Part shown: positions 2,457 through 58,297 of the stretch, one piece after another | How positions within the stretch are numbered: position 1 is the stretch's first letter | How the letters are laid out: every line of letters begins with the position of its first letter | Source: Bacilli bacterium | GTDB lineage: Bacteria; Bacillota_I; Bacilli_A; RFN20; CAG-826 | Length of the DNA stretch: 64,000 nucleotides | Direction of reading: 5' to 3' | Assembly (NCBI GenBank): GCA_017940265.1 | Contig: JAGAYY010000025.1 | Coordinates: forward strand, 711 to 64,710 | Translations under genes and position numbers: made by a program | Notes under the pieces: model-generated | Seen by the model: only the letters and a program-made list of their open reading frames with translations | Told to the model about the DNA's origin: nothing | Databases searched by the model: none

Positions 2457-2839
2457 ATGAAAGAATAGCGAAAAAGTCTAGAGAAATAATAATAGGTCTT
2501 AGCTTGTCTCCAAAAGGATCAGTAGACTATAGATTTACATATATTCCGGTAGGTACAAAACTAGGATGGTTCAAGAAAACTAAGGAACCGTTGTGGAAAA
2601 CGTATCACCTAGGTCAGTACTTAACTTACTTGACTAGGGATGAATTATCTAGGTGGATGTCTTCTGGGTGTTTCGTCGGAGTAGATAATGTTGTATATTT
2701 TAAACCATCAGTCACTATATATTACTCTGGTTATGATTTCTTATCGAAGAAGAATACAGAAACTAAATTCTTTGATACAGAGTCAGAAGCTATAGAATAC
2801 TTTGAGGAATTAAAGAAAGAAAACAATTTATATGAGTGA
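2453..2839 (+). CDS. hypothetical protein
   Basis: 128-aa ORF with ATGA overlaps at both ends. Confidence 0.5.
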   Translation: MNERIAKKSREIIIGLSLSPKGSVDYRFTYIPVGTKLGWFKKTKEPLWKTYHLGQYLTYLTRDELSRWMSSGCFVGVDNVVYFKPSVTIYYSGYDFLSKKNTETKFFDTESEAIEYFEELKKENNLYE

Positions 2840-4946
2840 AAGATTAGAACGAATAGAGAAACTTAAACAAGTCGCGGAAACTGTTAAGACTGAGTACGTA
2901 GGTCTTGATGGAATTATTGATGAACTTGAGAAAGCTATCTGTCCTTGGTATATAACTCCGGAGATCATTGAAAGACCACAAATTATATCACTCTGGGGTA
3001 TGACTGGGACAGGTAAAACTTCGGTCGTTAAACGTTTTCTCGAACTTTTGGGTCTAATTCCTAAAACTTTGTTCTTGGATTGTGGGGAACTTGCCGGGGA
3101 TTCTGGACGCTCATTGACAGATAAAATAAATGATTACCTTGGAGAAGATGAAGATGCGATGTCTCCAGAGGGATTAGTCTTTGTTTTCGATGAATTTCAG
3201 TATTCCAGAACCTTAAATGAATCTGGGGAAGAGGTTACCAAATCAAATCTTCGACCCGTTTGGAGTTTAATAGATTCAGGTATCATTAATCTTACCGAAA
3301 ACTCTTGGGATGCTGGAACATTCGAAAGTTTTTATGAGGATTTGAGATCTTTTGCGGACTTACACCCTGGGATTGTACTAGATGAATGTAATATAATTAA
3401 TCCCGATGACGTTAAGACTATCTTAGGGGACTTGGGATTAGTCTATTTCGGACGTGGAATTCCTGGATTTATGAAACCGAAGAAATCTTATAGTCATAAT
3501 TCGGATGAAGATGCTAAAGAAGATGAGGATCCATATCGTCCACTTAGAGTTATCGAAGATAATATTGTTAGAATCTTGAGATGGAAACTTAAGCAGAGAT
3601 GTGGAATAGAATATTTTCAGTCCGTTCTTGGTAGATTAATGTCCGCCAAGACCTTGATTGAATTTGTTGATGTCTTAGGGGAACAACGTCAATATGTATT
3701 AGCCCCTAGAAATATAGATTGTTCTGGTTCGCTAGTATTCATCTTAGGAAACTTAGATGAAGCCTATCGAAGTTCAGAGGACATAAATCCAGATCTTGAT
3801 GCCGATATGTTCTATGATACAACAAGTAAAGTAACTATTTCAGATATTAAAGAGGCATTAAAGAAAAGATTTAGACCAGAACAAATTGCTAGATTTGGGA
3901 ATAACATTATTAGATACCCCTCCTTATCTCGGGCCCATTTTATTGAATTAATTGAGAAAGAATGTGATCGAGTATGTAGAAGATTCACTGAGTCGACGGG
4001 TATATCAGTTAGAGTGGCTGAAGATCTTAAGAACTTATTATACTCGGAAGGTGTTTATCCAGTCCAAGGAGCAAGACCGATTTTCACTACTATCTCAACT
4101 ATCCTAACTCCATTATTTTCTAGGATCCTGATTTTCCTCGACTCCAAAGAAAATAAAGAGTCATACAATGTTATTCTCTCATTAAATGGTCAAACTGATT
4201 TTAAACGTCAGGAAATCAAAGCTTACATAGAATATTCCGATGTTATGAGAGAGACAGTAACAGTTCCATTACAACTTGGGGCTGAACGTGATCCTGCCTG
4301 TCGGAAAACTCGAGTTCCCAATAGTGTTCATGAGTCAGGGCATGCAATCGTTATGGCATACTTAACGGGAATAATCCCCACCCAAGTAATATCGGTATCT
4401 ACTGATCATGGTGGATTTTGTCTCACCTATGATAAAGATAAACATTCAGAGATCCCCTCTCGTGGTGATATAGCTAATAATGTATGTATCGGGTTAGCGG
4501 GATACGAAGCTGAAAAATTAATCTTTGGTGAACGGTCAGAAAAATTACTGTGTGGATCAACAAGCGATATAGAAACGACTTGGAATGAATTCGCGCAAGA
4601 AGCATATCGTGGAGGATATTTTGAACCTTTCAGTTATTCTTCCTATCAAACGGAAAATACGACTGATGGGATACCTTCTGGATATGGGGATGATTGGTTG
4701 CGCGATAAAATCAAGTCGGAGTTTGATCGCTTACGTAATAACACAGTTAATATCCTGACCGAAAATAAAAAACTTCTCTGTACAATGGCAAAGAAGATGT
4801 CTGAGAGTGGTGGTCTAAGTGCCCCTGAAATAAAAGATCTCATCGACAAAAACTACGAGGGAACACTAACCTCCGAAAGACTTGCCGAAGCTGCAGAGGA
4901 TAATAGTTATTCTTGGTATCTCAAGAAACTGGAAGAACAAGTCTAA
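2832..4946 (+). CDS. AAA+ ATPase fused to an FtsH-like (M41) zinc metalloprotease domain
   Basis: Walker A is GMTGTGKTS and Walker B-like is VFVFDEF. The C-terminal HESGHAIV is an HExxH motif in FtsH-like context. No N-terminal TM helices are evident. Confidence 0.7.
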   Translation: MSERLERIEKLKQVAETVKTEYVGLDGIIDELEKAICPWYITPEIIERPQIISLWGMTGTGKTSVVKRFLELLGLIPKTLFLDCGELAGDSGRSLTDKINDYLGEDEDAMSPEGLVFVFDEFQYSRTLNESGEEVTKSNLRPVWSLIDSGIINLTENSWDAGTFESFYEDLRSFADLHPGIVLDECNIINPDDVKTILGDLGLVYFGRGIPGFMKPKKSYSHNSDEDAKEDEDPYRPLRVIEDNIVRILRWKLKQRCGIEYFQSVLGRLMSAKTLIEFVDVLGEQRQYVLAPRNIDCSGSLVFILGNLDEAYRSSEDINPDLDADMFYDTTSKVTISDIKEALKKRFRPEQIARFGNNIIRYPSLSRAHFIELIEKECDRVCRRFTESTGISVRVAEDLKNLLYSEGVYPVQGARPIFTTISTILTPLFSRILIFLDSKENKESYNVILSLNGQTDFKRQEIKAYIEYSDVMRETVTVPLQLGAERDPACRKTRVPNSVHESGHAIVMAYLTGIIPTQVISVSTDHGGFCLTYDKDKHSEIPSRGDIANNVCIGLAGYEAEKLIFGERSEKLLCGSTSDIETTWNEFAQEAYRGGYFEPFSYSSYQTENTTDGIPSGYGDDWLRDKIKSEFDRLRNNTVNILTENKKLLCTMAKKMSESGGLSAPEIKDLIDKNYEGTLTSERLAEAAEDNSYSWYLKKLEEQV

Positions 4947-11946: not shown

Positions 11947-13008
11947 ATGAATGATGATTTTCTTTTAGATGACGATGATTCCGAGCTGAATGAAGCCGGA
12001 TATTATCAGCAACCACCTCCAGAAGACGAAGATGACGCTGGAGATGAAGAAGAATCTAGTGAAGAAGAATTAACAACTAAAGAGTATGATGGCAAATTAA
12101 ATGACTTCGAATTAAAGTGTATCTTGGGGTATGATGATATTCAAAAGTATGGAAAATCTTCAGAGGATTTCATGATGGATGCCCTACTCGTTATTGTAGG
12201 TACAAACCCTTACCATGAGTCAAGCAAAACTATTGCAGATATAACACGTAGTGTATTAGGTAGAAATGGACATAATCGAGTTGCAAATACTCTCTATACT
12301 GCTGAAGATACTACTCTTACAGGTGTAGATGTTGATGAAGATTTTCTGGACAAAGAGGATTCTAAGTTTAACCAAGAATTTACAGAGGAAGCAAGACGAA
12401 TGATAGCTGATTTTATTGACTATCTAGCAAATCGTGACCTCTCTAAGGATTCAGTGTTTTCTCGGAATCGAAAGCTTAGAAATATCCCTGCGCTAATTAT
12501 TCTTTTGTTCAGCTCTAACTTGTATGGATTAATTGTAGGTATCGAAACACTCCCGAAAGTTTATGCAGATCAAGTAGATAATGCTTTCAATATTATAACC
12601 AGGCGTAAGCAGGATATAGTTGAAGAGTTAGCTAGAGCATATGAAGAAAGAGGAAGACAGATTGTAGCAGATAGAGTTAGGAGAATGGGTATCGCATGGT
12701 TTGAGCGCGAGCCAGCAGAAATCCGAGTCTTAGCTGAATTTGCTGATCTGGAATTAACCTATGATGATGTTGTCTTATATCGTGAATATCGTGTTAAATT
12801 TACTAATTCAAGTAAGACTATCACACAGGATTATATTTCAGATTTAATCGAAGTGGTTATTGATCCAGAAGCAGGTATCTATGAGCGCCTTAAGGACAAA
12901 ACAAGATCCGAGGCTATTGCAGATGTTAAGCAAATTTGGAAACAATGGGCTACAGAGAATGCACAAGATTCAGAACTCGCCAAGAAAATTATTTGGAAAT
13001 CAATTTAA
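11947..13008 (+). CDS. hypothetical protein with a strongly acidic N-terminus, immediately upstream of the beta-prime homologue
   Basis: ATG at 11947 (the track start 11923 is TTG). Residues 1-45 are D/E-rich. Confidence 0.5.
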   Translation: MNDDFLLDDDDSELNEAGYYQQPPPEDEDDAGDEEESSEEELTTKEYDGKLNDFELKCILGYDDIQKYGKSSEDFMMDALLVIVGTNPYHESSKTIADITRSVLGRNGHNRVANTLYTAEDTTLTGVDVDEDFLDKEDSKFNQEFTEEARRMIADFIDYLANRDLSKDSVFSRNRKLRNIPALIILLFSSNLYGLIVGIETLPKVYADQVDNAFNIITRRKQDIVEELARAYEERGRQIVADRVRRMGIAWFEREPAEIRVLAEFADLELTYDDVVLYREYRVKFTNSSKTITQDYISDLIEVVIDPEAGIYERLKDKTRSEAIADVKQIWKQWATENAQDSELAKKIIWKSI

Positions 13009-13011
13009 GTT

Positions 13012-13920
13012 ATGGGAATTTCACTAGAATTATTAACAGATGAGGATATACTTGACTATTCTCGGGAAGCAGGTGAAGATCATGTCCTAACTTCTAAGTC
13101 GGACCTGAACCTGAAATATGATAATATTCGCCCTATCGTAGGTGGATGTTATGACCCGGTGATTTTTGGTAGTCCTTTCGCAGATCGTTGTATTTGCGGT
13201 AAGATAAGACAACCTTCGAAATCACCTTGCCCGAATTGTGGAGTAAGAGTATATTCGAAAGAGGAAGCACTTAGAAGATTTGCTCGTATTGAATTGCCAT
13301 TCTATTATCTAAATGACCTGAGATTTGACATTTTCAAGCAGAAATTTGATACTATTTTTAAAGACACAAAGATTATTCTCAACTTTAGTGGTGATGATCT
13401 TAAGCGTCTAGGATATAGTGCAAGAGGAGCTAAGAAAATGGGTATTAAGGTCTTCGATATGTGTCAATTCGATTATAATCCCGACACTAAAGAACTAACT
13501 GTCAGTGAATTTATTACTGACGAGTCTAAATGTTCTTATGAAGGAATAATGAAAATAATCGAAGAGTATTTCCCCGAACATTTGACGGAATACAAGAAAC
13601 TAATTAACCGTTATTATCTTGTACTCCCTGCTGTTATGCGCCCCTTCACACTTACCTATAGAGATGGTAAAAAACTGATGGGAACGCACAAACTCAGTAT
13701 TTGGTATTCTTCTATTATTTGGCTTTGTTGCGTCGAAGATAAGAAGGGTGCAGATAAATTAAATTATGAAACGGTTATGGAGTCGCTCAAAACACCGGGC
13801 GAACGAGTTAGATATACGGCTCTCTTACGCGCTTACCTAAATGCTGGTAAAAAAGAAGCCACCGAACTCCTTAATACCTCTAAGGAAAATCTAGCACGTG
13901 AACTCTATGCCGTACGTACT
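13012..13920 (+). CDS. rpoC: RNAP beta-prime homologue, exon 1
   Basis: An N-terminal zinc-ribbon region is present (FGSPFADRCICGKI...CPNCGV...RFARIELPFYY). The exon ends in U at 13920, which is paired to the intron guide sequence. Confidence 0.75.
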
Positions 13921-14733
13921 AAGCAGAATTTTTGGTACGTGAAAGTTACTAATAGACTTTCTACTTGAATCCAAATCAAGTAAATTTTGTGTATTGCTGG
14001 AACCTCGTGAATGGGGAATCAGCAGCTTTACTTAGGGATTATTATTAAATAAAAATAGAAGATTATGAGAATACCAAGACTCTCCGAAGTTTCTGATTTC
14101 TCTGATCTCCTAGACTTCGATTTCTTTGATAGATCTGAACGAATGAAAGAACTACATCGGGAAGGACGTTACATTGGTACTTCCAAGATTGGTGTCTGGA
14201 ATAGATCAGAAGAAAAAAGAGAAAGAATGAAACGGATCCGAGAACAGAATCAGAAAGATAAAACTTCTCGGGGATATGGATCAGAGTATCATCAGCGTCA
14301 AGCTAATCGTACGCTCCTTCATAATAAGTTTCAAGGACTCAAAGGTTTTATGTACCTGCTCGAGTTCCCTAAAACTATTAAAGTAGGATTCTCGAAAAAC
14401 TGGGAAAGACGTACGAGTAAACAAATAATTGGTGGTCGAGTAGTATTAATTATCTCCGGCCCTACCAATAATCTGGCTGACTTGGAATTTGATACTTTAG
14501 TCGAGTTTCAAGATTTTACACAGCTGGATGAAACAGGAACTAGATATACTGAGTTCTTAGATAAAAAGGTTGCGCCAGAAGTATATGATTTCTTGATGGA
14601 ACACGCAGTATCCGACCCTACCCTAAAAGTCGAGGTACAGAATCCTCTCTAAAAGTAAAGTTCAACGACTATGTACAAAACTCTCGTAGAAGATATAGTC
14701 TATGTTAGGAAAAGGAAACTTACCTAACTAAAG
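13921..14733 (+). mobile_element. group I intron 1 (813 nt) carrying an endonuclease ORF
   Basis: Core elements: P ttgctggaacc 13994-14004, Q gaatcagcagc 14016-14026, R gttcaacgactatg 14660-14673, S agaagatatagtcta 14688-14702. Guide ggtacgtg (13934-13941) pairs 8 bp with the exon end, with U.G at 13920. A P9-like hairpin gttagg/cctaac is followed by taaaG at 14733. Confidence 0.7.
14065..14652 (+). CDS. intron-encoded T5orf172/GIY-YIG-like homing endonuclease
   Basis: 195 aa. The C-terminal half FMYLLEF...IKVGFSKNWERR...TEFL resembles the T5orf172 (GIY-YIG superfamily) pattern. The ORF sits between the Q and R elements. Confidence 0.5.
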   Translation: MRIPRLSEVSDFSDLLDFDFFDRSERMKELHREGRYIGTSKIGVWNRSEEKRERMKRIREQNQKDKTSRGYGSEYHQRQANRTLLHNKFQGLKGFMYLLEFPKTIKVGFSKNWERRTSKQIIGGRVVLIISGPTNNLADLEFDTLVEFQDFTQLDETGTRYTEFLDKKVAPEVYDFLMEHAVSDPTLKVEVQNPL

Positions 14734-14977
14734 AAAAATTCCGCACGTTGCCCGATTGTACCTGACATGAATCTTAAGATTGATGAGCTGGGGATCCCGA
14801 GACATATAGGATACGAAATGCTTAGGGAGGGCTTCATTGAATATTTAATGAAGGAACTCAACTTCACTAAAAAAGAAGCAATGAAGGCAACTAAGGAAGA
14901 AGCAACAAATCCGGAGACTCAGAAATTGTTTAAAGAATATGCAGAAAAACAATATGTATTGGTGAATAGACAACCGT
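14734..14977 (+). CDS. rpoC: RNAP beta-prime homologue, exon 2
   Basis: The exon 1-2 junction reads LYAVRT|KNSARCPIVPD...DELGIP (compare LMGKRVDFSARTVI...GVP in Rpb1-type sequences). The exon ends ...VLVNRQP plus T. Confidence 0.7.
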
Positions 14978-15138
14978 TAATAGTGGCGGCTTATGGTAAA
15001 AACTTTAAGAAAAGTTCATTAAATGCTAGAATGGTTTAGACCTAATTAGCAGCTTAGAATAATAAATTCTAAGTTCAACGACTATATATGAACCCTAGAT
15101 GATATAGTCTACGTTATTCAGGAATGAAATAACTATAG
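14978..15138 (+). mobile_element. group I intron 2 (about 161 nt, no ORF)
   Basis: Core elements: P aatgctagaatgg 15022-15034, Q ctaattagcagc 15042-15053, R gttcaacgactatat 15073-15087, S agatgatatagtct 15097-15110. Hairpin gttatt/aataac is followed by tataG at 15138. A short P1 forms between ccgt and gcgg. Confidence 0.6.
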
Positions 15139-16129
15139 CGCTTCACGAATACTCTATTTTCTGTGTAAAAATTAAACTAGTGGATGATTATACATTACAT
15201 TTTCCACCGGCCATCTGTTCTCCGCTTAACGCTGATTTTGACGGCGATACGGTGTCTATTCAGCTTGTGCCTGAAGATGTAGCTGAGGACACATATCGAA
15301 AAATGTCACCAAGATACGTAACGTATTATAAGAAAAATGGTAAACCTATTCCTGAGATAAACCATGAGGTACTTAATGGTTTAGCAGTATTATCGGAATG
15401 GACACCAGAATCTGCGGAAGAACTTAAGGAACCAAGATATTATTATGATGATTATGTTAAACTCCTCAAGGATGTTGAAGTAAATAAAGTAATAAAAGTT
15501 GGTACTCCTATAGTATTTACGGGCCAAATAGGAAAAGTTAAGTATCAGTCTGAAATAACAACCTATGGAAAAATTCGACTTTCTAAGATTCTCGAAAAGA
15601 ATATAGATGATCTCGGATTCACAAAAGATAAATACACTCGATTCGATGCAAAAGCTGCTACTAAATTGAGTGCTTACCTATGTGATTTCCCCGAAGATGG
15701 AGTTGAAAAGAGACTTGAGCTCCAGAAACTTTGTCTAAGAGTTGTTAGTTTGGCAGGTGTAGTAACATTTGATTATTCTACACTCTACACAGATACTAAT
15801 ACAGAAACCTACAAGGAAATTTGTAAGATTGCAGATTCACCAGACCTAACAGATCAGCAAAAATTATGTCTCCTTACTGAAAAATACGAAAAGTATGAGA
15901 AGGAGATCGAAGCGAGTTTCTCAGACGACCTTAAGAACGAATTAAATCGAGCAGGTCGTGTTAAGATAAGTAGCATATCAGCCTTGAATATGCCCCAACT
16001 AATTATTAGTGGTGTAGATGAACTTCCTGTAATTACTAGAGGTTCATTGTTATCAGGGTTATCAGAAAAAGATATGATATTCCATTCTATTGAGAACCGC
16101 TCATTACAATCCATAAAAGTTAGTGGCGT
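15139..16129 (+). CDS. rpoC: RNAP beta-prime homologue, exon 3 (catalytic NADFDGD)
   Basis: The exon 2-3 junction gives NRQP|SLHEYSIF. LNADFDGDTVSIQL lies downstream. The exon ends ...ENRSLQSIKVSG plus GT. Confidence 0.75.
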
Positions 16130-16481
16130 ATATTACATCAACCCCGAATAGATGGTGCGCTACTTAATAAAAATGCAGATTATTGCTGGAAAGAATGAAA
16201 TTTTTAATCAGCAGCTTATTATTATGAACACCAAGTCAATAGTATCAATCTTAATAACAGTCGGAACAATCTTATCCGGAATTGGCCAGCTCATACACGA
16301 ACTGGAAAACTCGCGCAAAAAGATGTCCGACGATAAGAAACATATGTAATAAGTTCAACGACTATATACTGTACTTAGATGATATAGTCTAATTGGTTAT
16401 GGATGAACATAACCCATAAGGCGTCGGAAGAAGATATTGCGCGTGAATCTTCAGTTCGTCTCCTTATTGACCAAATTCGGG
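16130..16481 (+). mobile_element. group I intron 3 (about 352 nt)
   Basis: Guide gcgctact (16157-16164) pairs 8 bp with exon agtggcgt, with U.G at 16129. Core elements: P 16183-16193, Q 16206-16215, R gttcaacgactatat 16353-16367, S 16377-16390. Using G 16481 as the 3' terminus restores SGV|SLTRQ. A structurally canonical alternative 3' site lies at 16420. Confidence 0.55.
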
Positions 16482-16824
16482 ATCACTTACTCGTCAAATT
16501 TCCTTCCTCTTAAATAATTACGTTTATCAGGATGGAGAAGACATAGAAAATCCTGGTCTACTTATTCCAAGATACAAGGCACTCGGAAGAACTGCCCCAA
16601 ATGGAAAAGTATACCCAGAAACTTACTCAGGCAAACCAAATGAAGACGACCTTGTTCCTGTTAGATCTATCCTTACTAAAAAGACCGGAGACTTAAATGT
16701 AGTAACTCCAGACTTGATCGGTAAGAAATTTAAAGATTTTACATCAGGAGCAGCTATCGGACTATCATTTGCACGTTCACTTACCGAAGGAACAACTCAG
16801 GCCGCACTAGGTTTGAAACACGGT
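16482..16824 (+). CDS. rpoC: RNAP beta-prime homologue, exon 4 (bridge helix to trigger loop)
   Basis: SGVSLTRQISFLL matches the NSGYLTRRLVDV region. GAAIGLSFARSLTEGTTQAALGLKHG matches GEAIGxIAAQSIGEPGTQLTMRTFHxGG. The ORF track missed this exon because it is short. Confidence 0.6.
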
Positions 16825-18036
16825 CGGAAAAATGACTGCTGTGTATAAATAAGTAAAAATGCTGGAAGGGTAGAATAACCAAATCAGCAGCTAGCATAAA
16901 ATTATTGGGCTTCTTAAAATTAATATGACAGAATTAATAACCTATAAAGGAAAACAATATGAAGTAACTAATCCAGGAGAACTAATATATAGTACAACAC
17001 ATTATCTCAGAGGTTGTAGAAAAGATAAACGATTTGAAATAGTAGATCAACTTAATGGATGTTCTGAAATTCAATAATCATTCAAGTTGTGGTAGTAGAA
17101 TAAAATACCTACAAACTAAATACGGATTAACTGAACTAGATTATTATATAATAGTAGTCTGTAGAGGAGATGAATCAAAGTTACCTAGATGTACTTACGT
17201 AAATCCATATACGGATGAAATATGTAACAAACCTAAGAAATTTCGAACATTAACTCCAGGATTATATTAAAGAACCGGAAAACGAAAAAGAATATTTCAT
17301 GAAGGGTGTGAAGAGCATGCAAGTAATGCAGCAGCTCAAATAGCACAACGAGAAAATTATAAACGTGGCGTTACTAGTCTCCAAAAAGCAGATAGAAAAT
17401 CTAAAGTTTGGAGAAAAACTAAGTCTTCATGCCAAGAAACAAATGGAAGAAGGTAATAGCATCTTTTCTCCAGATGATATCAGAAATGAAAATCTGCCTA
17501 GTTGGAAAAATTTTCAAGTTTTCCCATCAATAAATCATTATAAAGATATCGCAATTTCTCTTGGTATGGATGAGTATAACTTAAGTATCGAGAATTGTAT
17601 ATTAATTGATAAAATAAATTATATACGGAGAGGGAATCCTGAAGATATTTGTATCTATTATTTAACCTATTTTGAAGAAACTAGTGATTACTTTAAACCA
17701 GGTGTTACAATAGACTTAAAAGAAAGATCTAATACTGATTACCATGGATATAAATATAAAACTCCAGAAATATTATTTACATCTAGTCGATTAATTATTG
17801 CAGAAATCGAATATGAGGTAAAATTAAAATTTAAAGATTTCATAGTTTTAGGAAATGAAGCTTTTGATATCAAACACAAAGATGAAATCTTAGAATATAT
17901 AGAAGAACGAATTAACTATTATAATAAAAACGAAGCTCAAGATAGTTAATTATAAAAAAAAATAAAATGCTAGTTCAAAGACTAATATGCTTACAAAGAA
18001 GATATAGTCTATCCTTTTATAGAAATATAAAAGCCG
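16825..18036 (+). mobile_element. group I intron 4 (about 1.2 kb) with a fragmented endonuclease gene
   Basis: Guide gctgtgt (16838-16844) pairs 7 bp with exon acacggt, with U.G at 16824. Core elements: P 16857-16870, Q 16881-16891, R gttcaaagactaat 17973-17986, S 17997-18010. A hairpin cttttata-GAAA-tataaaag follows. The 3' terminal G is 18036 (18033 is also in frame). Confidence 0.6.
16925..17949 (+). pseudogene. intron-encoded T5orf172/GIY-YIG-like endonuclease, apparently split over three frames
   Basis: The coding sequence is in three pieces: 16925-17077 (frame 2), 17055-17270 plus an in-frame continuation after TAA (frame 0), and 17365-17949 (frame 1). The last piece carries ICIYYLTYF...KPGVTIDLKER...GNEAF. 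Confidence 0.4.
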
Positions 18037-18888
18037 GAAGGTCATGAAAGAGTGCTCGATAAAATGGGCTACTTAAAAGCTGAGAAATCTTGCACGTTCA
18101 GAGAAGAAGGTAAGTGGATTATCCTTAAGGTTAGAGGAGGAGAACTTAAGTATCCAAGACCCGATAACCTAGTAACATTGGGAAAGGATAAGTTTGAGAA
18201 AGGTGAGAGTGTATGTTGTGCTTATAATACCTCATCTCCAATCAGTAAGCTTAATTCATTGATTAATTTAATGAGAGCTAGAGGTTCGGCAGGTTTGAGG
18301 TATTTTGAGAAGGATAATATCATTGTATCGGATTGCTATGCATATGAAGATGGGATTATCAAGTATGTAGAAACTGAAGGGGGAGATATTGAAGTTAAGA
18401 TTGGGTCTAAGACTTATCAATATAATCCTAACTGTATGTATTATTTCCCTGACGGTTCTGAAGTGAAGAAATTTGATAGAATCTGCTCTGGAGTGGTTAA
18501 TATGGGCCATGTGATTTCAGAGCTAGGAACAGATCTGAATGATATCTATCTTATCTTCCGTAAGCAATTCTATACTTTAACAGATGGTGGATTCTTGAAA
18601 AATGGATTCTCTGATCTTGGTTCGACGCAGGAAGAAATTATTGAAATTCTGTTCGCAGGATTGACCAATATTAACTATGATCCTAAGTCAGCTAAAATTC
18701 AGGATATCGATTATCAAGGAACACAGACTGCCGTACTCTCAAAGAAATCATTCTATACCGTACTGTCTTATGGATATAGTTCTAGAATCATCGGTAAAGC
18801 ACTCAAAGGCGAAGTTAATCTTGGTAATGATGTTATGACCGGTGTTATCTTAGGCTTACTCCTTGATAATAAACTTGATCAGGATTAG
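18037..18888 (+). CDS. rpoC: RNAP beta-prime homologue, exon 5 (C-terminal part)
   Basis: In frame with exon 4. The five exons total 3339 nt, which is 1113 codons including the TAG stop. Confidence 0.6.
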   Translation, partial: EGHERVLDKMGYLKAEKSCTFREEGKWIILKVRGGELKYPRPDNLVTLGKDKFEKGESVCCAYNTSSPISKLNSLINLMRARGSAGLRYFEKDNIIVSDCYAYEDGIIKYVETEGGDIEVKIGSKTYQYNPNCMYYFPDGSEVKKFDRICSGVVNMGHVISELGTDLNDIYLIFRKQFYTLTDGGFLKNGFSDLGSTQEEIIEILFAGLTNINYDPKSAKIQDIDYQGTQTAVLSKKSFYTVLSYGYSSRIIGKALKGEVNLGNDVMTGVILGLLLDNKLDQD

Positions 18889-18898
18889 GAATAATTAT

Positions 18899-19120
18899 AT
18901 GGGAACTATGAAGATTGAATTTGACGTTCCTGAGTTTGAAAAGGAACTCGAGATCAACATAGTTATTCGAAAAGATGGTGAGGTGGTTGTAAGAGAATCA
19001 GCCACTCCACCATCAACCTCGGAAACTATGACAGAAGAAAAACAGATGAAAAAATCTGTATCCAAGGCAAAGAAGAGCCCTGGTAATTTGATGGACCCTA
19101 ACTTATTTGATACAATATGA
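18899..19120 (+). CDS. hypothetical small protein
   Basis: ATG at 18899 (the tracked TTG start overlaps the beta-prime gene). 73 aa. Confidence 0.4.
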   Translation: MGTMKIEFDVPEFEKELEINIVIRKDGEVVVRESATPPSTSETMTEEKQMKKSVSKAKKSPGNLMDPNLFDTI

Positions 19121-19473
19121 GTGGAGATAATACTTACTACAACATTATCCTGACTTACGAGATACCATATAATGTATTAGATAGTCAGGACCCTAGTATA
19201 ATTCAAGCCCGGGATAACCTATATGAGAGGTTGGCTAATATAATTCCCCCTAAGTATGAACTTTTCTCGGTTAAACTTGTATTATACCAACTCAAGGATA
19301 CTTATAATTTCTTAGTTACTTACAATGCTTTCTTTAGATCTACCTCGGGATTACCAATGAGTGAATATGTTGAGGCTCGAGATCTAAAGGACTTAATAAA
19401 TAGTGAACTTGAGGAATTTTTCAACTCAGTAGATTGTGAATATAAACAATTGAATATTAAATCTTTAGTATGA
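19117..19473 (+). CDS. hypothetical protein
   Basis: 118-aa ORF with ATGA overlaps on both sides. Confidence 0.45.
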   Translation: MSGDNTYYNIILTYEIPYNVLDSQDPSIIQARDNLYERLANIIPPKYELFSVKLVLYQLKDTYNFLVTYNAFFRSTSGLPMSEYVEARDLKDLINSELEEFFNSVDCEYKQLNIKSLV

Positions 19474-21841
19474 GCAACTTTAATGAGTATTTCAGAAACA
19501 AAGGTGCCAGTTTGATGGTAGAGAGATTCTTCGGAAATGCAGATACTTTTAATCCAAATGTCAAAATTGCTACTATGACTCACTCTATTGTTGATGAGCC
19601 AGAACAACCAGCTTCATATTATGTTGAAAATGGTCTGACTGCAACACATAAGGTGAGAATTGAGTATACAACTACTGACGCTCCGGATGAAATAAAGTAT
19701 TCTGAATTCGAAGTCCCTAAAGAAATAGATGGCGTCTTCATTATTGAGGGAGCCTATCGAATCGCAACCAACAAAATGGGATCGGATTATGACTGCCGTA
19801 TTAGAATGTCTGGATCAGGAGATTATATAATTAACTTCGACTATGACAGAAGATACGACATTAATAAACGTATTCTGAAAATCAAGAGGACTAATCCAGA
19901 ACTCAGATTAATTGACCGAGATGTTAAACTAAAGTATGAGGAAATAGATGCTGCAACAGGTGAAACTAAGGAATTACTGAAACTCTCCGAAGATCAGATT
20001 AAGAAATTCCAGATTAAACTTAACATCGACTATAAACCTGAATATATTAGTACTAGGTTAATTAATGATTGCTTGGCCTTTGGAGATGATAGACTTAAAG
20101 ACTTGATTATAGACAAAACGATAGAAAGTGTACCGACTAGTTTTATAAAACATATCTTTAGATCGAATAACGGTAGAAACTATAATAGTGCTCGTCGTCA
20201 TATTTCGAGCTATTTTGCAAAATATGGAAAACTATCGGAGCAAGTTTCTGTTATAACCACAATGTCTATCCGATTCTTTAAGGGAAGTTCAGATTCAAAG
20301 GGAGATACCGGCTTACAAGTTCCTCCAGGTATTAACGCTGCGAACTTACAAAGCTTGGGAAGTAAAATTACAGTACCAGCAACAGTAGCTTTTAATAGCA
20401 CATTCACTGATTTGATCGATATAGCAGATACACCGATAAATAATAATACCAACCTACAGAACGCACTGACCGTATCTACATCGATTACTGATGATGGTAT
20501 TATATTTCAGGCCTACACATTAGATTGGCAAAGAGTTCCTATTAAGTATATTGATTACTTAAATGCGAAAGTATGTGCCTCTGAGTATGTAGATTACAAA
20601 ACGCATCAAATTAAGCCGAATGAAAATGGTGAGGTTGAGGTTAAGTACAGAATGAGACGCAAAATGGTCAAGGTAGATGAAATTGAATTAATAGATCTAC
20701 ACCCCGATTTCCGTCTCTCTGAAGCTACTCGTCGAATTCCATTTATTAATTCAACTGACTCTGTTCGTATTTCAATGGGCGCATCGATGCTAAAACAAGC
20801 AATCCCATTGGTAAATGCAGAACGAGCACTTGTCGGTACTGGTCATTCAGAAGAACTGAAAGACAATGTACTAAATGAAAAATTTAAATACGACAAAGGA
20901 AAGGTTAAAGATATTACGGAGTTTGATATTGAAATAGAACTTCCGGATGGTCAGATAATCAAACATCCTCGTCGAACAGCAATCCAATCTCAGAATGATG
21001 TTTGTGTCTATTCTCAGCCTAAGGTTAAGATAGGACAGAAACTTAAGAAGGGAGATATTATTGCTGGTGCCACTAACTTAGAGGTAGATACTTATAAAAA
21101 TGGTATCAATGCTCTTGTACTATTCCATGCCTATCACGGTTTAGTTAATGAAGATGCACTTGTTGTGTCTGAATCATTCGCTAATAAATGTGTTCACTAT
21201 AGTATCATTGATTTACAGTTGAACATTAAGAATACTGCAGCCCTTAAATGGATTGCTCCGATAGGTACAAAAGTTAAGTCTGGGGATAGTGTTGTTGGTG
21301 TTTATAAGACGAATCGATTAGATGACGTAAATAAAGCTCTTGCCGAAAAATTAGGAGGACTTTTTGGTGAAGGAGGTAAGGATATCACTGAATATACTAC
21401 CGAAGATTTCCTTAAGGTACCAAATAACATTGACGAAGCTTATATATCCGATGTCTTAATTCAGGAACAAAAAAATCCTAAAATTCCTAAGTCAGTTAAA
21501 ACCCCCGACTATCGATTTTCACAAACTTCTCGTGAGGTTGCAGCCGAGTACGAAAAGGGAATGGATAGAAAAGTAATCTATGACCGTTTCCCAGAGTATG
21601 TAGCCTCCGATCGTCTACGCCCAATTAATATGAGCCGTGATGAATATAAAGTTACTTTTACCGTCAGAATAAGACTAATCAAGAGAACTATCCTTATGGT
21701 TGGTTCAAAAGTTACTAATTCTTATGGTGGAAAGGGTGTGATCTCGATGGTTAAACCAGATGAATTAATGCCTATAATGGTTGACAAAAACACAGGCAAA
21801 CAGCATCGTGTCGAAGTCATAATGAACCCATATTCCACGAT
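19470..21841 (+). CDS. rpoB: RNAP beta homologue, exon 1
   Basis: RRIPFINSTDSVRISMGASMLKQAIPL matches [38 protein letters not shown]...ELMP matches GDKxAGRHGNKGVxS...DMP. The exon ends ...MNPYSTI. Confidence 0.75.
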
Positions 21842-22699
21842 AAACTAGCGATTTGTCGTGATTAAATTGTATAAAAATGCTGGAAAGGTTAATCCCAATC
21901 AGCAGTATAGATTAGTATTGTAAGTTAGTATGTCTGTCCTGAACTTAACAAAAATAAAAGCATATGGAAACAGATAAAAACTTATGGTGGTATGAGAGAT
22001 TATATAAACAAATCACCGAACGAGGAAAACTACGTGGAGATGATAAATCAAAATTAGAAGGATACTATGAAAGGCACCACATCGTTCCTAGATGTGTTGG
22101 AGGTGGAGACGAACCAGAAAATCTAGTCCTCCTAACCTTCAGAGAACATGTCTTATGTCATATTATTCTCACTCGATTATATCCACGAAACTTACATATC
22201 TTGTTAGCAGCAAATATCTTGTTGCGAATAGACAAGAAAGACACAAATGGTAATATTATTAAGGTAACTATTAAACGATCTAGAGTTGCCGAAGACATAA
22301 AACTTAAATACGCAGAGGGTAAAACTAGAGAAGAAAGAATCAAAGTTTCTACCCCAGAATTAGGTCGTCGTTATTCTAAAGAAACGAGAGAAAAATTTAG
22401 GGCAGCTAGATTAGGGAAGAAACACCCAGGACATCCAGGCTTAGGAACAAAACCCAAGCCAGTCAAAGATCCAGCAGGTGTTATATTCCGAAGTCTTAAT
22501 CGCTGTTCAAAGGCATATTGCGTTAGTATTTCCACAGTTAAAGGTTGGATTACGAGAAGACAAGGATTTACTTACGTAGAAGATGATGAGTAAGACGACT
22601 GACCTACAATACTTAATCTATATTCAAAGACTATATATACAACTGTCCCAGATTACAGATGATATAGTCTAGCCTAAGGTGCAAACCTATAGGATATTG
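21842..22699 (+). mobile_element. group I intron 5 (858 nt) with an HNH endonuclease ORF
   Basis: Guide gtcgtg (21855-21860) pairs 6 bp with exon cacgat, with U.G at 21841. Core elements: P 21875-21888, Q 21897-21906, R attcaaagactatat 22612-22626, S agatgatatagtct 22647-22660. A hairpin is followed by atattG at 22699. Confidence 0.7.
21964..22593 (+). CDS. intron-encoded HNH homing endonuclease
   Basis: HHIVPRCVGGGDEPENLVLLTFREHVLCH is an HNH motif. NUMOD-like repeats (SKETREKFRAARLGKKH) lie C-terminal to it. Confidence 0.75.
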   Translation: METDKNLWWYERLYKQITERGKLRGDDKSKLEGYYERHHIVPRCVGGGDEPENLVLLTFREHVLCHIILTRLYPRNLHILLAANILLRIDKKDTNGNIIKVTIKRSRVAEDIKLKYAEGKTREERIKVSTPELGRRYSKETREKFRAARLGKKHPGHPGLGTKPKPVKDPAGVIFRSLNRCSKAYCVSISTVKGWITRRQGFTYVEDDE

Positions 22700-23492
22700 A
22701 AATCGCAAAATTTCAGGCGTTATTATGGAACAGTCACTCGGAAACTGTGTCCATCGTATATATGATCTGGTTGAAGAGTATAAAAGAACTAAAACGGGTC
22801 AAAAGAAAATCATGCCCCTAATTGAAAAATACTATCCAGGACGTTACACTGGAATGGATGTTTTAGATTTCATTAAGTTACATGAATCAAAACCAATCGA
22901 GGAAGTATATTATCTCGAGGTAGGATGTTATTCTGATTTTACACCAGAAATAGTCGACCAATGGATGGAAGAACTTGGTGTAGAGAGTCAGTCAGAAATC
23001 CTAATGCCTGAGGTAGAACTTTCTGATCTGGATGAACTTAAGAATAATCTAAGCCCAGAAGAGTATGATGAGATTAGAAAGGATATGATTGGAAAATTTA
23101 GACCTGTAGATAAGAAGCTTCAGTGTGGTTGGATGCTTCTTGAGGAACTCTATCATATTCCAAGCTATTCGAATAAAGTAACAACAAGTATGGCAGGAAT
23201 CGACATTAACTCTAAGAAGGATGAGCCTATCTTGGGTAGAGGTCGATATAGAATTACTGGTCAGAAAATTGGTGAAGATGAACTTAGTGCTTTGTTATCA
23301 AGAAATGCTAGAGAATTTATTCAAGGTACTAGAAAAGATACCGCAAGAGAAGATAATCAGCTATTCTTGAATAATCTATTGAGTCTTGGTTTAACAATTT
23401 CGGATAGTGAAGGATTCAATCAAGGTGGTTCTAGTCTTAAGAGCGACCTTAAGAATATGAAGACTAAATTTAGATTAAAGAATCAGAAATGA
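22700..23492 (+). CDS. rpoB: RNAP beta homologue, exon 2
   Basis: The junction gives NPYSTI|NRKISGVIMEQSLG, matching [20 protein letters not shown]. The two exons total 3165 nt (1055 codons). Confidence 0.7.
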
Positions 23493-25210: not shown

Positions 25211-27784
25211 ATGGAAGACTTAAAATTTACAGTTTCAGATGAACTTAAAGTTATACTGAGAAATGCTAATCAAATGGCAAAATCAAATAGCGATAAGGAA
25301 CTGACTGTCGAACTTATTACGTATCTTATCCTCAAACGATATATAAACGAGGAGGGAGACCTAGAGAGTAATATTATTAAGGGTGTTCTAGATGATTACA
25401 AAGATTCAGCAAAGAAAGAAATGCTTGAAGCTTGTAAGAAAGAATATGAGAGAACAGCCAAGAAAACATCATTATTCTCAAGATTTGAAAATTATACATT
25501 CTCGGAAGGATTAGAGGAAACCTTCGAACGTACTAATACAATAATGTCTATTAAAAATGAAATAGAAAGTACGGAGGGTAATATTATAACTACCGAGCAT
25601 CTCTTAGTCTACGGAATTCTACATCATAAATGTAAATTGGTAGACCTCCTTAGTGGAACTTATCAATTTAATCATATAAGATTCATGGCTCAGCAAGTAT
25701 GTGAGTCAATCTTTAGTGAACCAGAACTTAAGGAGAAGAGAATAGAAACTCCCCCAGAAAAAGAGGATACGACTGAGGAAGATGATGATAAGTTTGAAAG
25801 AGCCGCCGAAGGACAAGATGCAATCTCCGTCCGAAAACATGATCCCAATTCGAAAACTCCATATCTAGATCAATTTGGCCTTGATATGACACAAAAGGCA
25901 AAAGATGGAGGATATGACCCAGTAATCGGTAGAGATAAGGAGATTTCACAAGTCATCGAGGTATTATGTTGTCGAAAGAAAAATAATGCAGCTCTTCTTG
26001 GTGAGGCTGGTGTCGGTAAAAGTGCACTAGTAGAAGGTCTTGCTCAGAAAATAGCGAACGATGATGTACCTATGGAGCTTAGAGGAAAACAAATATTCTC
26101 GGTTTCCACCACAGATCTTCAGGCAGGTACAATCTATAGAGGACAACTTGAGGAAAGAATTCAGAAGTTATGTGAGGAGGTCAGAGATAATCGAGATATC
26201 ATTCTCTATATCGACGAATTCCATCAAGCTGTTTCCGATAGTTCCTCTAATATTGCCCAAATGATGAAACCTTCTTTAGCACGTGGAGAACTCAATGCGA
26301 TTGTTTCTACGACTGTATCTGAATATAGAAGATATGTTGAGAAAGATGCCGCTCTTAAAAGAAGATTTGAACCTATCTACTTAGAAGAGCCTAACACCGA
26401 GGAAACTGTTAAGATCTTGGAAGGATTAGCTCCTGGATATGCTAAATTCCACCATGTTCGTTTTGGTGAAGGGGTTCTTGAAAAGTGTGTGGAATGGTCT
26501 GGACGTTATATAACAGATAGACAATTCCCAGATAAAGCTATTGGAATTATGGATATGGCTGCTTCGGTAACTAAACTCCAAAATCCATTAGATTATGAGA
26601 AGAGAACCGAACTACAGGAAGCTATTGATAAACTTAACTCACAAGCTGACTCCGCCATTGAGAATTCAGAATTTGAAAGGGCGTCTAAGATCAGGGATGC
26701 TAGAATTAAAATAGAATCCGAACTTAAAGATCTCATTCAGGCTCAAGAAGAGAACCAAGAGGGATGGCCAGAAGTTACTATTAATGAAGTTTCCTCAGTA
26801 ATCTCTAAATTATCTGGAGTTCCTATTGACAAAATAATGAACTCTGATATGGGTAAGGTTAGAGAAATGAAAGCTACCTTAGGGAAACAAGTAATTGGAC
26901 AGGATAAAGCTATTGAAGAATTATCTGTAGCCCTTCAGAGAAATATCTTAGGTTTACGTGATCCGAAAAAACCTATCGCATCATTCCTTTTAGTGGGACC
27001 GACTGGAGTAGGTAAAAGCTTGGTCTCTAAGGTTCTCGCCCAAGAATTTTTTGGATCAGATAACTCTTTGGTTACTATTGCTTGTTCTGAATATATGCAA
27101 GAATGGGCAGAGTCTAAGTTATTGGGCTCGGCTCCCGGTTATGTTGGATTCGAAAATACAGAACCGCGCCTCTATGTTCTTAAGCGTCGGCCTTTCTGTG
27201 TTCTCTTAATTGATGAAATTGAGAAATCACACAGTAACTTATATAATATTTGGTTGAATATGCTTGAAGAAGGAGAAGTAACCTTGAGTAGCGGCGAGAA
27301 AGTTAGCTGTAGAGATTGTATTATTATCTTCACAGGTAATGTCGGAACTAAATCTCTCGAACTTAAGTCTGGGGATCTTGGATTTGGCACTAAGAGTAAA
27401 GAAGATAAGAAAAAGACCGACGTTGCTACAGTGATGAAAGAAGTTAAAAAAGAATTTCGGCCCGAGTTTTTAAATAGACTTTCTGGAATTATAGTATTTA
27501 ATCCCTTGGGGAACGAGGAACTTCTGCAGATCTTCGACTTAGAATTAGGTAAGCTTCAGGAACGACTCTCTGGTAAATATAAGATCGGAGTTAGTAAAAA
27601 GCTCAAATCTTGGATAGTGGATAAAGCTGAACCGCAATATGGAGCTAGATCCTTACAGAGATTAATTGTCGAGTATGTAGAACAAGAAATCTGTAAAAAA
27701 CTACTTGATGAAGATCCTGGCGACAAGAAAAAAGTAAGTCTTGACCTTGGAAAAGATGAGGTAATTAAAGTTAAGTTTTCATGA
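25211..27784 (+). CDS. Clp/Hsp100 double-ring AAA+ unfoldase (ClpC/ClpB-like)
   Basis: NBD1 has GEAGVGKSALVEGLA and ILYIDEFH. NBD2 has GPTGVGKSLVSKVLA and VLLIDEIEK. A UVR-like linker (FERASKIRDARIKIE) and an LGF tripeptide (GDLGFG) in NBD2 are present. Confidence 0.8.
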   Translation: MEDLKFTVSDELKVILRNANQMAKSNSDKELTVELITYLILKRYINEEGDLESNIIKGVLDDYKDSAKKEMLEACKKEYERTAKKTSLFSRFENYTFSEGLEETFERTNTIMSIKNEIESTEGNIITTEHLLVYGILHHKCKLVDLLSGTYQFNHIRFMAQQVCESIFSEPELKEKRIETPPEKEDTTEEDDDKFERAAEGQDAISVRKHDPNSKTPYLDQFGLDMTQKAKDGGYDPVIGRDKEISQVIEVLCCRKKNNAALLGEAGVGKSALVEGLAQKIANDDVPMELRGKQIFSVSTTDLQAGTIYRGQLEERIQKLCEEVRDNRDIILYIDEFHQAVSDSSSNIAQMMKPSLARGELNAIVSTTVSEYRRYVEKDAALKRRFEPIYLEEPNTEETVKILEGLAPGYAKFHHVRFGEGVLEKCVEWSGRYITDRQFPDKAIGIMDMAASVTKLQNPLDYEKRTELQEAIDKLNSQADSAIENSEFERASKIRDARIKIESELKDLIQAQEENQEGWPEVTINEVSSVISKLSGVPIDKIMNSDMGKVREMKATLGKQVIGQDKAIEELSVALQRNILGLRDPKKPIASFLLVGPTGVGKSLVSKVLAQEFFGSDNSLVTIACSEYMQEWAESKLLGSAPGYVGFENTEPRLYVLKRRPFCVLLIDEIEKSHSNLYNIWLNMLEEGEVTLSSGEKVSCRDCIIIFTGNVGTKSLELKSGDLGFGTKSKEDKKKTDVATVMKEVKKEFRPEFLNRLSGIIVFNPLGNEELLQIFDLELGKLQERLSGKYKIGVSKKLKSWIVDKAEPQYGARSLQRLIVEYVEQEICKKLLDEDPGDKKKVSLDLGKDEVIKVKFS

Positions 27785-57349: not shown

Positions 57350-57421
57350 TAGCCGGTAGGAGAGTCGAACTCCTCTTTAGAGAATGAAAATCTCTCGTCC
57401 TAACCGATAGACGAACCGGCC
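57350..57421 (-). tRNA. tRNA-Glu(UUC)
   Basis: A canonical 72-nt cloverleaf on the minus strand: ggccggt tc gtct atcggtta ggac g agaga ttTTCat tctct aaag aggag ttcgact ctcct accggct a. Confidence 0.85.
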
Positions 57422-58227: not shown

Positions 58228-58297
58228 TCAATAATCTAGGATTCGAACCTAGGACCTCTAAATTTCTCTAGCACTCTACCATCTGAGCTAATTATTT
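58228..58297 (-). ncRNA. tRNA-like RNA lacking an anticodon loop (GAAA tetraloop in its place)
   Basis: The minus strand reads aaataat ta gctc agatggta gagt g ctaga GAAA tttag aggtc ctagg ttcgaat cctag attattg a. The D-arm, variable loop and T-arm are canonical. The anticodon stem is capped by only 4 nt. Confidence 0.55.

Follow-up and report, generated by a model that had tools for sequence, protein, structure and literature searches.

Five pieces of open reading frame (ORF) at 13012-18888 of a 64,000-nucleotide (nt) stretch of contig JAGAYY010000025.1 very probably constitute a single gene for the beta-prime subunit of a multisubunit RNA polymerase, split by four group I introns. The stretch is referred to here as the window, and all coordinates are its own. 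Sequence and comparison with relatives point just as strongly to an origin in a jumbo phage of ~394 kb from ruminant gut metagenomes, whose RNA polymerase operon is interrupted by five group I introns: the beta-prime gene has four and the beta gene one. A first-pass annotation of the sequence had interpreted the locus as a beta-prime gene interrupted by four group I introns, and this interpretation is supported on comparative grounds, with two splice sites revised. We further propose, more tentatively, that the beta-prime introns belong to a lineage that splices without the P8 helix. The exons of the beta-prime gene are placed as follows.

Exon 1: 13012..13920, + strand, 303 codons with the zinc ribbon, ending AVRT; the last nt, U, pairs with G13934; collinear with intact homologs.
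Exon 2: 14734..14977, + strand, 244 nt, KNSARC...NRQP.
Exon 3: 15139..16129, + strand, 991 nt, SLHEY...NADFDGD...KVSGV.
Exon 4: 16470..16824, + strand, 355 nt, PNSGSLTRQ bridge helix and trigger loop, ending LKHG.
Exon 5: 18040..18888, + strand, GHERVLD... to the stop codon; an alternative start at 18037 adds one Glu.

The ORF fragments on which the first-pass annotation was built exist as listed, and its five exons do join into an open frame of 1112 amino acids (aa). The consecutive beta-prime signatures that it read across the pieces are visible in alignment with homologs: Rpb1 domain 2 with NADFDGD, the zinc ribbon, the bridge helix and the trigger loop lie in one collinear chain. With the corrected exons the predicted spliced product has 1115 aa, or 1116 aa if the Glu at junction 4 is kept; the earlier sum of exactly 1113 codons was wrong. 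A search of 5.8 billion proteins with the spliced product returned dozens of uninterrupted homologs of 1113-1131 aa, with 64-71% identity and 100% query cover; against those of 1113-1116 aa, identity over the full length is about 70%.

A continuous alignment of the spliced protein had been suggested as a test of the junctions. The exons first proposed align continuously at junctions 1 (AVRT/KNSARC) and 2 (NRQP/SLHEY), which show no gaps in an alignment of 13 sequences, 12 of them uninterrupted homologs. They do not at junction 3, where four residues are lost, or at junction 4, where an extra Glu appears; once corrected, junctions 3 and 4 are also gap-free against homologs. The Pfam RNA_pol_Rpb1_2 alignment (PF00623, E 1.6e-20) spans junctions 1 and 2, and bacterial beta-prime chains in the PDB (E 7e-17) align through both. 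The closest relative, locus L124 (about 78% aa identity), lacks introns 1, 2 and 4 and the beta intron, and has intron 3 at the identical site. The introns do lie in the most conserved motifs of the protein, as had been claimed, namely (R)xxSAR, NRxPxLH, the bridge helix and the trigger loop.

The pieces might instead remain unspliced, beta-prime being several assembling polypeptides and the insertions being free-standing endonuclease genes or their relics. Split beta and beta-prime genes are generally known to be common in jumbo phages, and gene callers annotate the present pieces as separate ORFs. However, the lengths of exons 2, 3 and 4 place junctions 2 and 3 inside codons, exons 2-5 begin without a start codon, and translation from the first in-frame starts in exons 2-5 would remove the invariant residues S306, R308, L386, T718-Q720 and G831. 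The exon lengths and the missing start codons therefore exclude separate translation of the pieces. The absence of any ORF from intron 2 also counts against free-standing genes, as do ribozyme cores under structural selection, and we regard this explanation as highly improbable.

All three frames of every gap hold stop codons, no Hint or intein domain was found, and the gaps, at 161-1215 nt, far exceed any known ribosomal hop. Inteins or translational bypass sites, for which the putative inteins reported beside group I introns in genes of Jug (jumbo gut) phages provide a precedent (PMC12880540), are thus already refuted by the sequence as an explanation of the insertions, and their chance is next to nil.

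The four beta-prime gaps could each be laid out as a group I intron.

Intron 1: 13921..14733, + strand, 813 nt, ending in G, with an ORF enclosed by P6.
Intron 1 guides, + strand: P10 guide 13928-13933; P1 guide GGUACGUG 13934-13941.
Intron 1 helices, + strand: P3 13985-13990/14675-14680; P4 13995-14000/14019-14024; P6 14026-14033/14653-14660; P7 14667-14672/14695-14700; P9 14704-14709/14723-14728.
Intron 1 ORF: 14065..14652, + strand, 195 aa, in the P6 loop; identical to NCBI protein J6I84_02550.
Intron 2: 14978..15138, + strand, 161 nt, no ORF, no P8, ending in G.
Intron 2 helices, + strand: P1 guide 14986-14992; P3 GUUC/GAAC 15014-15017/15090-15093; P4 15024-15029/15046-15051; P6 15053-15060/15066-15073; P7 15080-15085/15104-15109; P9 15113-15118/15128-15133.
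Intron 3: 16130..16469, + strand, 340 nt, ending in G, no P8; 3' end corrected from 16481.
Intron 3 guides and helices, + strand: P10 guide 16153-16156; P1 guide GCGCUACU 16157-16164; P3 16174-16178/16369-16373; P4 16184-16189/16208-16213; P6 16215-16221/16347-16353; P7 16360-16365/16384-16389; P9 16395-16401/16408-16414.
Intron 3 small ORF: 16224..16349, + strand, 41 aa, in the P6 loop; hydrophobic helix and charged tail.
Intron 4: 16825..18039, + strand, 1215 nt if exon 5 begins at 18040 (1212 nt by the site first proposed), no P8; last nt A18039.
Intron 4 guides and helices, + strand: P10 guide AUGACU 16832-16837; P1 guide GCUGUGU 16838-16844; P3 16850-16854/17989-17993; P4 16860-16865/16884-16889; P6 16891-16897/17967-17973; P7 17980-17985/18004-18009; P9 18014-18021/18026-18033.
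Intron 4 endonuclease gene, decayed: 16925..17949, + strand, in the P6 loop; ORFs 16925-17077, 17055-17270 and 17365-17949.

P1, P3, P4, P5, P6, P7 and P9 and the P, Q, R and S motifs were placed in each of the four gaps, and P10 too could be positioned in every intron. Every gap has one R..S pair, GTTCAAMGACTA..GATATAGTC, and one P..Q pair, TGCTRGAA..AATYAGCAGC, on the + strand; the 64 kb contains no copy of either beyond these four, and none is expected by chance. The ordered set of core elements first reported for every gap is thereby borne out, one set to each. All four 5' exons end in U, again as reported, and this U pairs as U.G with the G that starts the guide, 9-28 nt inside the intron. 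Guide pairings earlier given as 8, 4, 8 and 7 bp are present, the second as 6 bp with one bulge. A U.G pair with an internal guide was found in the beta intron as well. The guanosine-binding site is predicted at the P7 G-C pair beside a bulged nt, followed by J8/7, and CAA(C/A)GACUA...GAUAUAGUCU is invariant in the family. P1, P3, P4, P6, P7 and P10 show compensatory changes among relatives, and P4 of intron 2 has a compensatory G-C to A-U change. For intron 2 alone, the minimum free energy structure from RNAfold recovers P4/P5, P6, P7 and P9 (z = -2.4).

The two corrected junctions were decided by homology and by the guide sequences. At junction 3, the exon 4 start at 16482 first proposed drops four residues common to all homologs, KVSGVP(S/N)SGYLTRQ. 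Directly after G16469 the DNA reads A CCA AAT TCG GGA TCA CTT, giving V-PNSGSL, and an in-frame TGA precedes it. The L124 intron at the same site ends UUAUG, followed by GCCUAAUUCGGGAUCA. The homologs and the end of the L124 intron therefore put the start of exon 4 at 16470 and intron 3 at 16130-16469, which restores the bridge-helix residues PNSG. At this site the P1 guide covaries with a synonymous serine codon, as AGUGGCGU/GCGCUACU in the window and UCUGGCGU/GCGCCAG in L124.

Junction 4 as first drawn (KHG/EGHE) inserts one Glu that is absent from every homolog (KHGGHE). We compared 11 distinct related introns at this site (site 4). The 5' splice site is CA(C/U)GGU in all that have the 5' exon on the contig, L238 being cut off upstream, and the guide tracks the His codon (ACACGGU/GCUGUGU, ACAUGGU/GCUAUGU, GCAUGGU/GCCAUGU). 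The six nt 5' of the intron 4 guide, AUGACU, are the perfect complement (P10) of GGUCAU. This P10 covaries: L240 and L242 have the guide AUGGUU with the exon GGCCAU, a compensatory change, and exon 5 starts GGNCAU across the site. P10 and homology therefore place the start of exon 5 at 18040. The nt before exon 5 is G in L039, L163, L239/L361, L240, L242 and L360, and A in the window, L067, L237, L238, L241 and L289. The claim that each intron ends in G thus stands for introns 1-3, as it does for the beta intron, and is doubtful for intron 4, where P10 and homology put the end after A18039. On this evidence intron 4 probably spans 16825-18039 and ends in A; its P7 G-C pair is unchanged.

A different end for the same group I intron would be the canonical G18036, with exon 5 running from 18037 and the trigger-loop tip lengthened by one Glu (KHG-E-GHE). 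This site is in frame and keeps the otherwise universal terminal G. L241 and L289 likewise have an in-frame G at -4, where one Lys would be added, and the trigger-loop tip of bacterial beta-prime is generally known to tolerate lineage-specific insertions. However, GAAGGU has no P10, whereas GGUCAU pairs 6/6 with AUGACU in a helix that covaries in L240 and L242, and every uninterrupted homolog has KHGGHE. The use of an upstream G also breaks down within the same sub-lineage: L238 carries an in-frame UAA 6 nt upstream, so that no upstream G is usable, and an upstream G would add 2 aa in L237 and 3 aa in L067, there with a broken P9. We therefore consider G18036 a rather unlikely end and keep A18039. 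Shifted 5' splice sites, the first exon G as the terminal guanosine (omega G) and an internal start for exon 5 were also tried for intron 4 and rejected, each breaking the frame, the U.G pair or conserved residues. The predicted spliced sequences are given below.

Junction 1, + strand: GUACGUACU joined to AAAAAUUCCGCA.
Junction 2, + strand: GACAACCGU joined to CGCUUCACGAA.
Junction 3, + strand: AGUGGCGU joined to ACCAAAUUCGGG; the version first proposed would join AUCACUUAC.
Junction 4, + strand, with terminal A: AACACGGU joined to GGUCAUGAAAGA (CACGGU then GGUCAUGAA).
Junction 4, + strand, at the site first proposed: AACACGGU joined to GAAGGUCAUGAA.
Beta junction, + strand: UCCACGAU joined to AAAUCGCAAAAU.

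The fifth intron lies in the beta gene.

Beta exon 1: 19470..21841, + strand.
Beta intron: 21842..22699, + strand, 858 nt, with P, Q, R and S elements, ending in G.
Beta intron guides and helices, + strand: P10 guide 21848-21854 (7 bp with AAAUCGC); P1 guide 21855-21860; P4 21878-21883/21899-21904; P7 22629-22634/22664-22669; 4-bp P8 22643-22646/22655-22658.
Beta intron ORF: 21964-22594, + strand, HNH-NUMOD3 homing endonuclease (PHROG 655, E 1.3e-32).
Beta exon 2: 22700..23492, + strand.

P1 of this intron is formed by CCACGAU/GUCGUG. The predicted spliced beta has 1054 aa and aligns without gaps at NPYSTIN/RKISGVIMEQ against L124 beta (1058 aa).

Several observations weigh against four working group I introns in the beta-prime gene. 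Rfam cmscan gave no match to the group I model RF00028, over the whole window at the gathering threshold or over 12800-19200 at E <= 10, and returned only two tRNAs and chance miRNA-like scores. Introns 2-4 have no P8, and intron 1 has a vestige of it at most: just 14 nt separate its P3' from P7' and leave room for no more than a 3-bp UCU/AGA stem. A terminal A in intron 4, if P10 and homology are followed, is expected to be a strong impediment to the second splicing step of a canonical group I intron. The intron 1 ORF had no family match in Pfam, PHROG or PDB sequence searches and no recognizable nuclease domain. Splicing, autocatalysis and homing are, moreover, proposed here from sequence and comparison.

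The Rfam model, recommended in the first-pass annotation as a check, is silent because the introns lack the P8 hairpin. The introns of L121 and L122, which have P8 and bear ORFs, escape it as well, and over nine related loci it produced a single match, in L020. Its zero matches in the window do not refute the introns, and a match would not be diagnostic. In introns 1-4 the stretch between R and S is only 15-19 nt, comprising P3' and J8/7, with a predicted folding energy of 0. IMG/VR scans for such a short R-S spacer recovered at least well over a hundred loci, most on contigs of >100 kb and up to about 400 kb. A set of at least 33 distinct P8-less introns was assembled from IMG/VR loci, loci from other assemblies and the window introns. 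In 33/33 (the four of the window and 29 others) the folding energy of the spacer is zero. Cognate complementarity exceeds non-cognate complementarity in these 33 introns both for P3, comparing the sequence 5' of P4 with the intron's own spacer (p = 1e-14), and for P6 (p = 4e-19).

For covariation, 20 compact, independent P8-less phage introns from IMG/VR were aligned, the window being excluded. In this alignment 97.5% of cells are paired, vs 27-47% with the partners slid; compensatory changes occur in 6/6 pairs of P3 and 7/7 pairs of P6, and P7 is invariant. A covariance model made from these 20 introns (R1), again with no window sequence, matches intron 2 over its full length (92.4 bits, E 3.8e-14) and, in their 3' halves, intron 3 (E 0.0036), intron 4 (E 0.016) and intron 1 (E 0.047), with no other match in the 64 kb. 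ORFs of 126-1025 nt in P6 confine the matches of introns 1, 3 and 4 to these halves.

Relatives at the same or neighboring sites retain P8. The L121 intron at site 3 keeps it (GGACC/GGUUC), and the L122 intron, which carries an ORF of the same family as intron 1 and lies 5 codons upstream of the site of window intron 2, has a P8 of 7 bp. At site 4, P8 is graded: L240 has 6 bp, L241 (CUUU/AAAG) and L289 have 4 bp, L242 has 3 bp and a GAAA loop, and the window intron and six others lack the stem altogether. The P8-less elements are therefore derived group I introns, not look-alikes. Loss of P8 is a family trait, not decay of one genome. The P8-less R..S signature matched 19 times across 185,579 representative genomes of bacteria and archaea, in no case with P/Q upstream, and these matches are therefore chance palindromes. 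An IMG/VR scan for the intron 4 guide gave only L067 plus unrelated matches, L232 and L236 having a different, larger intron.

These introns could have kept the group I architecture and lost autocatalysis, a phage or host protein cofactor being needed for folding and splicing after the loss of P8 and, in intron 4, of the terminal G. P8 is absent from all 33 members and no replacement hairpin stands in the spacer, many organellar group I introns with weakened cores are generally known to need maturases or other proteins, and the conserved small ORF of the site 3 introns counts toward this explanation. Nevertheless, the catalytic elements (J6/7, the P7 G-C pair with its bulged nt, and J8/7) are conserved nearly to the letter, and no candidate cofactor was found. 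We judge dependence on a cofactor to be unlikely. As a tentative proposal, which we hold to be quite possible, a natural group I lineage in this phage clade splices without P8, and one sub-lineage (window intron 4, L067, L237, L238, L241 and L289) also without a 3'-terminal guanosine, its 3' site being set by the 6-bp P10 alone. If this is true, group I catalysis can dispense in vivo with two features of its design that are held to be invariant.

Under the proposed mechanism, the genes would be transcribed through the introns, each of which would fold into a group I core consisting of the P3/P7 pseudoknot, the P4-P6 domain and P9, with P8 deleted from between P3' and P7' so that P3' runs directly into J8/7. 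The last 4-8 nt of the exon and the internal guide would form P1, in which the U.G wobble would mark the point of cleavage. A free guanosine held in P7 would attack the 5' splice site; P10 would then align the released 5' exon with the 3' exon for its attack on the 3' splice site. Splicing would thus yield an mRNA encoding one continuous 1115-aa beta-prime and a 1054-aa beta. The conserved motifs that hold the introns would be sequences on which homing endonucleases can rely.

The intron ORFs are consistent with introns that are or were mobile: the ORF of intron 1 is intact, that of intron 4 has decayed, intron 2 has none, and the beta intron carries an HNH gene. The family to which the intron 1 ORF is assigned comprises about 268 proteins, roughly 170-210 aa long, and lacks a Pfam domain. 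Its AlphaFold2 model has a pLDDT of 75, the best Foldseek match is a weak one to the GIY-YIG nuclease Slx1 (E 0.087), and we presume it to be a homing endonuclease. Kinship between this ORF and the intron 4 ORF family was considered and rejected, BLASTP showing them to be unrelated. The small ORF of intron 3 does not encode an endonuclease. It is conserved among site 3 introns (41-52 aa, ..ILxTxGxIxSGIGQ..), at about 4211-4363 in L124, about 6265-6408 in L121 and in the C-terminus of P0051. The three intron 4 ORFs encode 50, 71 and 194 aa, and longer relatives are mostly of 320-340 aa; the relatives P0122 and P0123 have a weak match to T5orf172, a GIY-YIG-related domain (E 0.005). An IMG/VR search for loci related to the intron 4 ORF found none. 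The identical broken ORF is present on 18 contigs, and the intron therefore persists after decay of its endonuclease gene.

The phage context of this transcription gene, proposed in the first-pass annotation, is confirmed by PHROG matches and by relatives in IMG/VR, which are jumbo-phage contigs. Flanking genes match PHROG families of RNA ligase, Lon-like protease, DnaB and DNA polymerase. Eighteen contigs from several samples, up to 394 kb long, share this split arrangement, which is therefore not an assembly artifact. The identical intron ORFs are deposited at NCBI as the hypothetical proteins J6I84_02550 and J6I84_02565 of a metagenome-assembled genome labelled 'Bacilli bacterium'. Because gene content and relatives indicate a ruminant-gut jumbo phage, this bin is probably contaminated or mislabelled. 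A megablast search of the region against 50,697 phage records gave no match, and tblastn of the beta ORF reached only ~24% identity, to PBS1-like Staphylococcus jumbo phages.

Introns are frequent in this gene across the clade. The first-pass annotation called four introns in 3.3 kb extreme; L039 and L067 also have four in beta-prime, and in L127 the visible part alone has at least five, and the count is therefore typical of the clade, in which the beta-prime gene is an intron hotspot. The beta-prime intron sites in L039, L067, L122, L127, L153 and L182 lie at aa 379/380, within NA/DFDGD, and at 452/453, about 598, about 632, 671, 702/705, 827 and 908/917.

Other features of the window include two tRNA genes on the - strand, at 57350-57421 and 58228-58297 (Rfam 54 and 49 bits). 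The ORFs 2832-4946 and 25211-27784 both match the Lon-like ATP-dependent protease family phrog_4871, the first partially (E 7e-15) and the second over its full length (E 2e-185). A near-perfect hairpin of ~75 nt lies at 18957-19031, 70 nt past the beta-prime stop and inside a small ORF (18863-19120). It has a chance miRNA-like Rfam score on both strands (E about 0.2), and may be an RNA structure or a terminator that separates beta-prime from the genes that follow.

The orf142 gene of Staphylococcus phage Twort, which reportedly contains three group I introns, is a precedent for multiple such introns within a single phage gene, and very small fungal ribosomal DNA introns, said to have been described by Harris and Rogers, are a precedent for natural derivatives without core helices. 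Compared with both, the window has four introns per gene and five per operon, and family-level covariation for a defined P8-less core. The introns may also be likened to the IA2 phage introns of the T4 td, nrdB and sunY type, whose P/Q/R/S consensus is UGCUGGAA / AAUCAGCAG / UUCAACGACUAU / AGAUAUAGUCU. Shared with that type are the U.G pair and guide of P1, P10, endonuclease ORFs looped out from the core (from P6 in the window), and sites in conserved genes of nucleic acid metabolism. Unlike IA2 phage introns, the window introns have no P8 and no P7.1/P7.2, intron 2 is just 161 nt, RF00028 misses them, and intron 4 probably ends in A. The IA2 subgroup accounts for more than 50% of the group I introns in viruses (PMC11835236).

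Jug phages have genomes of 360-402 kb with 18.5 group I introns per genome, of mean length about 206 nt, splitting essential genes (PMC12880540, Sci Adv 2026), and 37/76 predicted Jug introns were confirmed as spliced by metatranscriptome reads (PMC12880540). Like the window phage, these are jumbo gut phages with many small group I introns in essential genes. IMG/VR contigs of up to about 400 kb with P8-less introns encode beta-prime proteins 51-77% identical to that of the window (per tblastn segment). The window phage is nevertheless of a different lineage, from ruminant samples, and the split genes in the Jug paper are those for terL, nrdD and DNA polymerase, with no intron-split rpoC and no discussion of intron architecture (PMC12880540).

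The beta-prime and beta genes of the window phage were deposited as scattered hypothetical ORFs, and Rfam misses 5/5 of the introns; annotation of gut jumbo phages is therefore likely to under-call both their intron content and the integrity of their genes. The 33 P8-less introns with a supported P1-P3-P4-P6-P7-P9 core, together with the single-site P8 series of 6, 4, 3 and 0 bp, form a natural deletion series for the role of P8. The terminal-A sub-lineage with its strong P10, if it splices, would challenge the requirement for omega G in exon ligation. Limited literature searches found no description of a P8-less group I intron or of a terminal-A sub-lineage, which is weak evidence of absence; within those searches, the reduced architecture and the terminal-A sub-lineage are the part not found described, group I introns in jumbo-phage RNA polymerase genes being already known.

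The known case is in PhiPA3, where a group I intron encoding the HNH homing endonuclease gp210 interrupts the beta-prime-like gene of the virion RNA polymerase (gp211/209) by the catalytic aspartates (PMC11620839, Science 2024). The likeness extends to an HNH intron in a jumbo-phage RNA polymerase, the HNH gene of the window lying in the beta intron, and to the L122 intron inside NA/DFDGD. PhiPA3, a chimallivirus, differs in having a single intron, vs four plus one in the window, where the sites and ORF families are other and the core is reduced. Use of an intron endonuclease as a weapon in phage competition was experimentally shown for PhiPA3/PhiKZ, and the five homing-type elements in RNA polymerase catalytic motifs of the window phage fit a role of intron endonucleases as weapons between co-infecting phages.

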